A DNA stretch of 64,000 nucleotides from Escherichia coli (GTDB taxonomy: Bacteria; Pseudomonadota; Gammaproteobacteria; Enterobacterales; Enterobacteriaceae): the NCBI RefSeq assembly GCF_045037415.1, contig NZ_CP173438.1; one strand, given 5' to 3'. Positions 45,301 through 48,300 of this stretch are shown here, one piece after another. Each line of letters opens with the position of its first letter. Within the stretch, counting starts at the first letter, position 1. Position numbers: made by a program.

Positions 45301-48300
45301 ATTGGTGATGTTGCTGAACGTTGCGGGATTAATCCTGTCACTCTCCGGGCCTGGCAACGCCGCTACGGTTTGTTAAAACCACAACGCAGTGAAGGCGGAC
45401 ACCGACTCTTTGATGAAGAAGACATACAACGCATCGAAGAGATCAAGCGTTGGATAAGTAATGGCGTTCCTGTAGGCAAAGTTAAAGCATTACTGGAAAC
45501 TACCCGCCAGGATACGCAAGATGACTGGAGCCGCCTGCAAGAAGAGATGATGTCAATTCTTCGTATGGCTAATCCAGCCAAACTACGCGCGCGAATTATT
45601 TCACTGGGTCGAGAGTACCCAGTAGATCAATTGATTAATCATGTTTACCTTCCTGTTCGCCAGCGTCTCGTGCTTGATCACAACACCTCCCGCATTATGA
45701 GCAGTATGTTTGACGGCGCATTAATTGAATACGCAGCGGCCTCACTTTTCGAAATGCGCCGTAAGCCCGGTAAAGAGGCCATTCTGATGGCGTGGAATGT
45801 TGAAGAGAGAGCACGATTGTGGCTGGAAGCATGGCGTTTATCATTGTCAGGATGGCACATTTCTGTTCTTGCTGATCCCATTGAATCGCCGCGCCCGGAA
45901 CTGTTCCCAACGCAAACATTGATTGTCTGGACAGGCATGGCACCAACGAGAAGGCAAAACGAACTTTTACAACACTGGGGTGAGCAAGGTTATAAAGTCA
46001 TCTTTCATGCCCCCTAAATTCACCTTTATCCCGCCCCTTAGACAGAATGTTATAATCTGAACCCACAACAGCGTTTGTAGCGGAGCTGGTCCGTTGCAAA
46101 ATGCTCACCGGGAGAATTCAGGTAATCCCCCTTTGACACTTTGTACATATCACAGCCAAAGGACAGACCAGATTGAAGTGGTAAAACCGATCGTGCACAC
46201 TACGCAGTCTCACACCTAACAAGAGGTTATTATCCTGATGGATCAGGTCGTTGTTTTTCAAAAGATGTTTGAGCAAGTGAGAAAAGAGCAAAACTTCTCC
46301 TGGTTTTATTCAGAATTAAAACATCACCGTATTGCACATTACATTTATTATCTGGCTACGGATAACATCAGAATTATTACTCACGATGACACGGTTTTGT
46401 TATTAAGAGGAACCAGGAACCTGTTAAAAGTTAGTACGACCAAGAACCCAGCTAAAATAAAAGAGGCCGCATTGCTTCATATTCGCGGAAAATCTACATT
46501 TCGGGAATACTGTTCAACACTGGCAGGCGCAGGCGTTTTCCGGTGGGTTACTGATGTTAATCATAACAAACGCAGTTACTACGCCATTGATAATACGCTT
46601 TTATATATTGAAGATGTAGAAAATAATAAACCATTAATCTAGCTAAAGTTGGGAGCTTAAGAAATGCTTCATAATTCAGTAAGGCATTAGCATAATGGAA
46701 ATAAAAGTGCAGAGACCATCCCTATGGATGATTAATACTGTCTTTTTATTGCTTCCCATAAATAATCACCAGACCAATACGATCAAATTGATATTTGAAA
46801 TGTGTTCACTTGACTTTTGATACGTTATTTTATAATGGTTAACATATTTATAACAACAACGGGCGTGTTATACGCCCGTTACCGTTTTTAACACATGCAG
46901 AAATTACATATTCTTGATGATCGCGTCACCAAACTCTGAACATTTCAGCAGTTTAGCGCCTTCCATCAGACGTTCGAAGTCATAGGTTACGGTCTTCGCA
47001 TTGATTGCGCCTTCCATACCTTTAACAATCAGGTCTGCGGCTTCAGTCCAACCCATGTGGCGCAGCAGTATATAAAAATTATGTATTCAACTCGCTGATA
47101 TTTAATCATAAATATTATTTTCTTGTCTTTGTATTAGCCAAAATCAACTTTATTCAACCGTTTGATTTCATTGACGTTCGTTTTTATTTTGGGGAAAGAT
47201 TTTCTCTACCATTTATATCAAAATTACAAGTCTACATTTTATTAACATCTCAATACATGTGTGGCCTTGCAAGCCATTGCGAGGCCTTATGTGTCTCAGT
47301 TTTGTCCCGCCTTGTATTACGACTTGCATAGCCAATGAAGATAAACGTGACGACAAACAAAGCAGCTGTCTTCTTTTCTTTCACACTTTCCCCACTCAGC
47401 AGCATGCATACCTTCTACTATAACTGTAGTGAATGTCTATTATGAGCGAACTGCGGACATCGTGGAGACAACATGCTGCTGGGTGCGGATATCCCATGGC
47501 ACGTCATATCGCTCGCCGTATTACTTGTTATTTTTTTGAAACGAGAAGTTGATACAATTCCTTCAGGGATAAGGCTAATAACTCATTCTTCCTGATGAGA
47601 TCTTTATCAGCGTCTATACCCTCTGCGCATGATTCATTTAAATAGTTCAGTGTTTCCTGATCATCATCCAAGCATTCATAGCTGCCTGAATAAAATTCAT
47701 CGCAACTTGCTTTGTTATTTTTGTCAATGTAACCAATGCATTGAATCACGCCTTTAACAACTTTAGCAGCAGAAAAAACAAAGTAACTGCAGTCATTTAT
47801 ATAGCGTTCAATATCAAAAATCATATAAAAATAGTGCATAGAGTGTTTTTCAATTTCAAACTCACTTGAAATCATAGCTATTTCACATTCAAGGTCTTTC
47901 AGACCATCTAACATTATGGAAAGTTTACATTGTTTTTCTTGCACAGTTTCATACTTAAATGACTCTCTCCCCTTTGCCCTGACATTTATTCTTTCTTCAA
48001 TTGCATAAATATAAGCAGGATATACACGCGACCACACTTGGTTTATTTTTAGGATTAACCGGCCTCTTTTCAGCCTTTCTTTTGTAGCTATAAATTCTGC
48101 ATATAGCGCAGCATCCTCTTCGCACCATACATCAACTTTTCGTTTATAACCCAACTTTAATTCTTTCCCTACGCATTCAGGAAACAAAGGATCAAAGTCC
48201 TTTAAGTATTCAAACTCACTTAGATAGAATCCTGTCTCATAACGATTAAATAATTTCCTAAACTCTTTCCCACTTAAGGTTTTCATTGTATCAATCACTC

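Follow-up and report, generated by a model that had tools for sequence, protein, structure and literature searches.

The window considered here is a stretch of 64,000 nucleotides of Escherichia coli DNA (RefSeq assembly GCF_045037415.1, contig NZ_CP173438.1), and the element under study is an orphan gene of its prophage accessory region, located on the minus strand at 47528..48286 between a partial copy of the isocitrate dehydrogenase gene (icd′) and the sitABCD genes. The product is known as WP_000567449.1 in RefSeq, where it is given a GTG start at 48298; the gene corresponds to CPT_21_31 in phage 21 and to LF82_189/PERCE_30 in Perceval, a prophage of strain LF82. Phage 21 is a founding lambdoid phage, and its relatives reside in icd of many clinically important E. 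coli strains and of the probiotic strain Nissle 1917. A sequence-only reading of the window had placed a hypothetical orphan gene next to the attachment site, in the accessory part of the prophage, and the position is borne out by icd′, which marks the attR end, as well as by the layout of two other genomes. In Nissle 1917, the order is bluF, bluR, ycgX, ymgL, icd pseudogene, WP_000567449.1, sitABCD, tail-fibre gene, J, and tail genes. In phage 21, CPT_21_31 has sitABCD on one side and the icd-like pseudogene, attP, and int on the other. The assignment of icd′ also relies on the RefSeq annotation of Nissle 1917, the attP annotation of phage 21, and icdC of K-12. The features of the locus are as follows.

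46904..47056, minus strand: icd′ (icdC-type), a 3′ duplicate of isocitrate dehydrogenase matching the 50-residue C-terminus of Icd; attR end
47057..47442: left flank of the cargo slot, where three other prophages (L020, L021, and L022) stay homologous up to 47348, 47383, and 47451, respectively, before homology breaks
47429..47539, plus strand: small convergent open reading frame (ORF) of 36 aa from a GTG, overlapping the last 12 nt of the orphan gene
47443..47527, minus strand: conserved 3′ flank of the module, where homology ends at 47442-47453 in L002, L003, L012, L015, and L016
47528..48286, minus strand: coding sequence of the orphan protein, 252 aa from an ATG, 29.7 kDa, pI 5.3
48287..48400, minus strand: conserved upstream region, found with the gene in all of its genomic contexts (6 and 10 loci aligned)
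48353-48348 and 48330-48325, minus strand: candidate sigma-70 promoter proposed from conserved hexamers (-35 TTGTGT, 17-nt spacer, -10 TATCTT)
48401..48660, minus strand: extra upstream piece common only to two Citrobacter copies (L015 and L016), with blastn boundaries at 48648/48663
48661..48984: right flank of the slot with the sitA promoter region, where homology resumes at 48635 (L021), 48697 (L022), and 48848 (L020)
48985-52434, plus strand: sitABCD

The gene is contained in the single long ORF found by ORF listing (47528..48298, minus strand), which comprises 771 nt including the stop codon and would encode 256 aa from the GTG. It lies opposite to sitABCD, as had been stated, but the length of 256 aa needs correction. 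Translation almost certainly begins with the ATG at 48286, giving 252 aa, because all orthologues begin with MKTL, the PHROG model spans residues 5-256 of the 256-aa version, and the annotators of phage 21 likewise use 252 aa. Moreover, in the orthologous loci L008 and L017 the codon located 12 nt further upstream either is not in frame or is no start codon, and the GTG at 48298 is rejected on this ground. The Shine-Dalgarno sequence is weak (GAG/GGAG, 13-14 nt before the ATG). The G+C content of the gene is 34.1%, as compared with 48.7% for the window; the gene is not, however, the most AT-rich stretch of the window as had been claimed, since positions 1-1000 have 31.5-33% G+C and a segment around 42250 ties with it. 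The protein contains 9 Cys residues (at positions 38, 55, 120, 134, 166, 183, 195, 205, and 220 in the 252-aa numbering), none of them arranged in a CxxC pair, so that the Cys pairs of the sequence-only reading do not stand. Only C166, C183, and C195 are invariant among the orthologues.

The ORF at 47528-48286 is a genuine gene and more than a chance ORF, because it is under purifying selection, is conserved in 759 E. coli genomes, and is transcribed. The ratio of nonsynonymous to synonymous substitution rates (dN/dS) is 0.16-0.52 in all 15 pairs of 6 orthologues with 59-92% amino-acid identity, which indicates purifying selection. The 759 carriers represent about 14% of 5,426 complete E. coli genomes and include Nissle 1917, an ST131 (sequence type 131) isolate, the avian pathogenic E. 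coli (APEC) O18, ATCC 25922, and LF82. All but one of the copies (758/759) are at least 99% identical, and in these 758 the reading frame is intact. Copies with 100% identity are found in some 20 lambda-like phages as well as in phage 21, and that of Perceval is also 100% identical; phage 21, Perceval, and the Lambda_ev and PhiR isolates are functional phages that carry the gene. Disruptions are rare, namely, an IS1 within the gene in strain ZJ3920 and an IS903B upstream of it in strain EC20. Beyond E. coli the distribution is narrow. A word-indexed search of 5.8 billion proteins returned 22 clusters at 90% identity, all of them belonging to the family and at least 63% identical, whose sources are E. 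coli, Citrobacter, Klebsiella, Mangrovibacter, and one metagenome-assembled genome (MAG) labelled Aeromonadaceae. Among species-representative genomes, 2 out of 100,044 carry the gene, and a single viral contig of IMG/VR contains it.

Transcription of the gene in a lysogen is documented by a reanalysis of RNA sequencing data of LF82 and its prophage Perceval (S1/S4 tables of PMC9928086), in which values are expressed as log2(fpkm+5), where fpkm denotes fragments per kilobase per million. The orphan gene reaches 4.4 in lysogeny broth (LB) overnight, 7.3-7.7 and 7.4-7.5 after 1 h and 6 h in Dulbecco's modified Eagle medium (DMEM), and 7.8-8.0 and 7.1-7.2 after 1 h and 6 h in macrophages. Raw counts are 1,047-1,742 in DMEM versus 15-21 in LB. 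For comparison, the CI repressor is found at 6.2-8.1 overall and at 6.7-8.1 in DMEM and macrophages, and the head and tail genes at 2.3-3.0. The gene is therefore transcribed from the repressed prophage at roughly the level of the repressor in LF82, and the lysogenic expression to be looked for by RNA sequencing according to the sequence-only reading is present while the structural genes are silent. The genes on either side show much lower values (LF82_188 upstream, 3.0-4.8; ycgX downstream, 2.3-6.2). Both lie 4-16-fold below the orphan gene, and the rise from LF82_188 to the orphan gene is about 16-fold; the signal thus stems from a local transcription unit and not from read-through. In the same data, sitA has values as low as 3.7-3.9 (DMEM, 6 h) and as high as 10.2-10.5 (macrophages, 1 h), whereas those of the orphan gene keep within 7.1-8.0 in DMEM and macrophages; co-regulation of the two is rejected.

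Data on a second lysogen agree with this. In strain NC101, the prophage NC-SV, which contains sitABCD, is integrated in icd at the site used by phage 21 (PMC12803456). After deletion of the prophage, a hypothetical gene beside sitA, GQ584_RS07115, shows the sixth largest drop in expression (log2FC -9.8), which equals that of a helix-turn-helix (HTH) regulator in NC-SV (PMC12803456 S1 Data). GQ584_RS07115 is probably the orphan gene, with which its product name and position agree.

The small ORF that converges on the gene had been placed at about 47441-47540 and considered as a possible source of antisense transcription. Such an ORF indeed exists on the plus strand and overlaps the 3′ end of the gene, but position 47441 holds no start codon. 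The homologous DNA of L002, L003, and L007 contains in-frame stops in its frame, and the surrounding 8 kb contain 87 ORFs of at least 30 aa. The small ORF is therefore a chance ORF. It is rejected as a gene because its frame is not maintained as coding sequence, although the underlying DNA is conserved, and the idea of an antisense ORF is left without support.

Judging from the alignments, the orphan gene with about 115 nt of upstream and about 85 nt of downstream DNA is a self-contained accessory module of 1.0-1.2 kb. The upstream region contains an invariant 14-nt block, GGTTGTGTAAGAGT. A consensus scan at a threshold of 9 of 12 positions gave no promoter on the strand of the gene; the step-up of the LF82 transcript between LF82_188 and the orphan gene nevertheless places a promoter in the upstream interval, and the conserved arrangement TTGTGT-17-TATCTT could be a weak sigma-70 promoter. 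The GenBank record of phage 21 annotates a CII binding site of the pattern TTGT-N6-TTGT at 48336-48323 (minus strand). This annotation is rejected, as the degenerate pattern overlaps the candidate -10 hexamer instead of lying on both sides of a -35. The same record contains at least five annotations of this kind within 16.8 kb, so that it is probably a pattern match only. Downstream, the 3′ flank contains a weak conserved hairpin at 47476-47502 (RNAalifold -6.2 kcal/mol, 2 compensatory pairs). A canonical intrinsic terminator is rejected, because no U-tract follows the hairpin.

The means by which the module moves may have left a trace in the extra 260-nt upstream piece. This piece contains at 48495-48593 (minus strand) a remnant similar to OrfA of the IS3 family of insertion sequences (IS), with the translation YSEELKIEAVKRVVE, and it may be a relic of IS-mediated movement; the annotators of phage 21 noted the same similarity to IS3 OrfA and called it unconvincing. 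No repeats bracket 47443-48400 or 47443-48660, whether as terminal inverted repeats, direct repeats, or an attC-like end. The module is therefore rejected as an insertion sequence, a miniature inverted-repeat transposable element, or an integron cassette, the IS3 remnant being the only such element nearby. An 18-nt inverted repeat (47389-47406/47472-47489; 16 of 18 positions complementary, arms 65 nt apart) spans the 3′ boundary of the module, with one arm within the conserved 3′ flank and the other in the flank of the slot, and may be due to chance.

The place occupied by the module is variable among related prophages. When the icd′ flank is used as a probe, other prophages integrated in icd share the sequence from 46800 to about 47350-47450 and again from about 48635-48850. 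The interval between these common flanks is found in the following states.

Orphan gene: this window and the 759 E. coli genomes
Empty, with the same flanks and sitABCD but without the orphan gene: L020 and L023
Acetyltransferase, XRE regulator, and GNAT gene: L021
mcrC and an AAA ATPase gene (McrBC-like): L022 and L024
mcrA, the last gene before icdC and in the same orientation: e14 of K-12

Because its content varies between common flanks, the icd′-sitA interval is a genuine cargo-exchange hotspot. The mcrA gene of e14 is matched by the PADLOC model mREase_IV (E = 6.5e-203), and it has been reported that McrA restricts phage and plasmid DNA (PMC12707154). Restriction systems thus account for 2 of the 4 alternative slot states, and the suggestion that the gene might sit in a defence hotspot holds for the slot itself, where e14 has mcrA and other strains have the McrBC-like pair. 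The nature of this hotspot is the strongest support for a defence function, yet it concerns the place and not the protein.

The orphan gene also agrees with the position of a moron, i.e., an autonomous accessory unit of a prophage, that had been proposed for it. Three of the four features of morons are found, namely, presence and absence among prophages, deviant base composition, and transcription in the lysogen; the moron assignment is supported because the gene is absent from colinear prophages, deviates in G+C, and is transcribed while structural genes are silent. As to the fourth feature, a promoter and a terminator of its own, the locus offers the candidate hexamers, which the consensus scan did not call, and the weak hairpin lacking a U-tract. 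Like the lambda-type morons bor, lom, and sitABCD of phage 21, it is an autonomous and compositionally deviant gene, expressed in the repressed prophage and present or absent among colinear phages. However, those genes encode envelope or transport proteins with known roles, whereas the orphan protein appears to be soluble, and its module also stands alone in integrative and conjugative elements (ICEs) and islands of other genera.

Ten independent contexts of the module have been compared, and the neighbours differ in all of them, with homology ceasing at the module ends. They comprise the following.

Klebsiella: integrase fragment
Citrobacter sedlakii: cargo region of an ICE, with an Mrr-type gene within 10 kb
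Mangrovibacter and a metagenomic contig: unannotated genes
MAG: type I restriction-modification (R-M) system with RhuM and an Imm50 gene
C. telavivensis: integrase fragment and a T5orf172/PDC-S57-like gene
C. werkmanii: CP4-like island with an HNH gene
Another contig: DUF900 hydrolase
Intestinirhabdus alba (L012): module directly abutting PD-Lambda-4

No partner gene is conserved in any of the ten contexts, and a toxin-antitoxin or other two-gene system is rejected for this reason. Defence or defence-like genes (PD-Lambda-4, type I R-M with RhuM, T5orf172/PDC-S57-like, HNH, and Mrr-type genes) occur within 10 kb in about 6 of the 10. In Intestinirhabdus alba, where the two PD-Lambda-4 frames occupy 9471-9941 and 9887-10768 of the locus, PD-Lambda-4_A is complete, whereas PD-Lambda-4_B breaks off at residue 141 of 303, a point that coincides exactly with the start of homology to the module; homology to the E. 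coli PD-Lambda-4 stops at position 9895. The defence gene PD-Lambda-4_B seems to have been inactivated in this species when the module arrived.

The protein itself has no characterized relative. Pfam yields no match even at E <= 10, either for the whole protein or for its N-terminal 70 residues, NCBIfam gives no match, and the sole match in PADLOC-DB 2.0 covers 25 residues of PDC-M13C (E = 0.0034), which is no assignment to a known defence family. The only family recovered is phrog_20520 of PHROG, a full-length match (E = 1.4e-177, residues 5-256 to model positions 1-252 of 252); since this family has no assigned function, membership is uninformative on mechanism. An exhaustive profile search of 1.84 billion representatives recovered one full-length cluster and fragments. 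Nothing below E = 0.1 was found among PDB sequences or by Foldseek in BFVD, and Foldseek against AFDB50 returned two matches, both members of the orphan family. The statement that no motif could be assigned is thereby confirmed. In the literature searched, no mention of the protein (WP_000567449, Q2LD86, A0A066SWV1, and FIG00639050) was found beyond table rows, and the genome announcement of phage 21 is silent on the gene.

The AlphaFold2 model of the protein has a predicted local distance difference test (pLDDT) score of 79 and a predicted template modelling (pTM) score of 0.72. It begins with a β-α-α-β-β unit at residues 3-55 (strands 3-5, 40-43, and 50-55; helices 6-15 and 22-31), a block with pLDDT of 65-90, which is followed by four long helices at 56-105, 115-153, 157-189, and 209-251. 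The invariant residues include H151, C166, C183, and C195 and the acidic triplets 56-58 (EED) and 207-209 (DDD), the latter following an invariant L206. No membrane-spanning stretch, signal peptide, or recognizable catalytic or secretion motif is present in the protein. According to the model, the product is predicted to be a soluble cytoplasmic protein in which a small N-terminal α/β domain packs on four helices, with an invariant His/Cys cluster. The predicted fold is without detectable relative in PDB, AFDB50, and BFVD, and the protein is in this respect new at both the sequence and the fold level.

Taken together, these observations are compatible with the possibility, tentatively favoured here, that the orphan protein is a single-protein factor of the conflict between phages and mobile elements, acting in defence or exclusion. 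A stoichiometric factor of this type is suggested because the protein has no catalytic, membrane, or secretion feature, is solitary, is expressed in the repressed prophage, and is often found among defence genes. It would be produced in the repressed prophage from the upstream region of the module and would act stoichiometrically rather than enzymatically. It might bind a protein or nucleic acid of the incoming phage, and this binding could either block the development of that phage or trip an abortive response. A broader proposal, which is somewhat unlikely when taken as a whole, is that the gene founds a new family of single-protein, nonenzymatic defence against phages or mobile elements, which would travel as a 1-kb unit of promoter and gene among the prophages, ICEs, and islands found in several genera of enterobacteria.

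Known systems provide partial parallels for such a role. McrA of e14 and the McrBC-like pair of the icd prophages share with the orphan gene the same slot, in which they are the last cargo before icd′ at attR; mcrA is transcribed towards icd′ as is the orphan gene, and all of them are accessory cargo of prophages. There is, however, no similarity in sequence or fold. McrA is an HNH nuclease recognizing modified DNA (PMC12707154), whereas the orphan protein has no nuclease motif and no match to the mREase models of PADLOC. HepS of Gifsy-1 (PMC13043305) and BstA of BTP1 (bioRxiv 10.1101/2020.07.13.199331), single-protein defences of lambdoid prophages, are, like it, cytoplasmic proteins encoded by one gene; HepS is also mainly helical, and an action on superinfecting phages is part of the proposed likeness. 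Unlike HepS, the orphan protein has no Rx4-6H motif of the HEPN domain, and no PADLOC match to such families was obtained. Its membership in the HEPN group is rejected, as His occurs only at 148 and 151 and no orthologue has an Arg 4-6 residues before either of them.

Several points weigh against a defence function. The protein resembles no known defence protein in sequence or fold and has no effector-type domain, and the alignment behind its model is shallow, comprising 15 sequences with no less than 63% identity to the query. Its co-occurrence with defence genes is confounded, since the gene resides in the cargo regions of mobile elements; 4 of the 10 contexts have no defence neighbour, and both the slot and the prophage also hold cargo unrelated to defence (sitABCD, acetyltransferases). 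As regards expression, the strandedness of the LF82 libraries is not stated in the paper, and in overnight LB culture the gene exceeds the prophage background by only 3-fold, which is below the 5-fold moron cut-off of its authors. In NC101, deletion of the whole NC-SV prophage, which probably carries the orphan gene, changed no plaque-forming units for 4 virulent phages (PMC12803456), and the effect on plaque size seen with 2 of the 4 phages was reproduced by the small RNA (sRNA) svsR alone (PMC12803456). This sRNA, located at the 3′ end of cI, is credited with the modest protection conferred by NC-SV (PMC12803456); the cI region of the present prophage lies outside the 64-kb window.

Among the alternatives, the orphan protein could be a DNA-binding regulator of the prophage, involved in lysogenic conversion or autoregulation, in which a winged helix of the MerR/Xis type would be followed by a dimerisation helix and a redox- or metal-sensing bundle. 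In the full-length model, the predicted N-terminal order of strands and helices, followed by a 50-residue helix, resembles that of MerR/Xis proteins (HTH_17). The protein is basic up to residue 105 (pI 8.6 and 9.5) and acidic thereafter, the invariant K44, K48, and K50 fall in the modelled N-terminal hairpin, and the invariant 14-nt block upstream of the gene could serve as an operator. The variation of expression with condition would also suit a regulator. A regulator is nevertheless unlikely. Neither Pfam nor hhalign lends support to the likeness; although the hhalign comparison with the MerR protein BluR selects the register VW-EED/LF-EED, as expected of a MerR fold, its probability is 0.1%, and the same value is obtained with the excisionase of phage 21. 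The helix that would have to serve in recognition (LSEFEYLKDF) is of acidic and hydrophobic character and neither basic nor polar. In addition, the N-terminal 70 residues do not fold when modelled alone in AlphaFold2 (pLDDT 49.5), and no winged HTH structures appear among the fold matches listed.

The conditions under which the gene is expressed may instead suggest a moron of host fitness or virulence, unrelated to phages, which would aid extraintestinal pathogenic (ExPEC) or adherent-invasive (AIEC) E. coli in host-like conditions in the same way as the adjoining sitABCD. Expression after 6 h in macrophages is 8-fold higher than in LB overnight (log2FC 3.04, q = 2e-22) and equally high in DMEM, and the carriers include B2-type and other clinical strains such as those listed above. 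However, the gene does not follow sitA (in DMEM at 6 h, 3.8 for sitA and 7.4 for the orphan gene), and the LB sample was taken overnight, in stationary phase, so that the apparent induction may be an effect of growth phase. Mangrovibacter, Intestinirhabdus, Citrobacter, and Klebsiella, as well as an ICE and defence islands, harbour the module without sit, and no signal peptide or membrane segment is found in the protein. A host-fitness role is, on these grounds, quite improbable.

Anti-defence genes, like defence genes, cluster on mobile elements, and the gene might accordingly benefit the phage itself, as an anti-defence protein or as a modulator of lysogeny or induction. Its carriage by functional phages and the truncation of PD-Lambda-4_B at the module boundary in Intestinirhabdus can be quoted in favour of this function. 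On the other hand, the gene is expressed in the repressed prophage and not together with the lytic genes, whether early or late, the phage can do without it since the colinear prophages L020 and L023 are devoid of it, and the module is also present in islands that are not of phage origin; a benefit to the phage is regarded as decidedly improbable. Finally, a functionless hitch-hiker, a decaying gene, or no gene at all, to which the orphan status, the narrow distribution, the weak ribosome-binding site, and the IS1 disruption might point, is very improbable in view of dN/dS values well below 1 in 15/15 pairs, the intact and highly identical frames of E. coli, the conserved upstream region, the strong transcription, and a fold predicted with fair confidence.

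The general type of the locus is a familiar one, that of prophage accessory cargo in a hotspot, and the slot is now a defined hotspot which can be mined for further cargo. The gene is among the best-expressed prophage genes in lysogens. If a defence function is true, the protein would represent a new fold and probably a new mode of action in prophage-encoded immunity, with consequences for phage therapy directed at ExPEC and for the resistance of Nissle 1917 to phages. Otherwise, an abundant and expressed orphan would still be at hand whose role in host-like conditions is worth knowing.

Another strain-variable defence insertion appears to be present at the beginning of the window. An AT-rich ORF of 590 aa (42-1814, minus strand) adjoins dhaR (3091-5019, minus strand); in Nissle 1917, according to its annotation and not to an alignment, only a small hypothetical gene lies beside dhaR. 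The ORF encodes a retron type I-C RT-Toprim single-gene defence system (PADLOC RT-Toprim_I-C, E = 5e-214).

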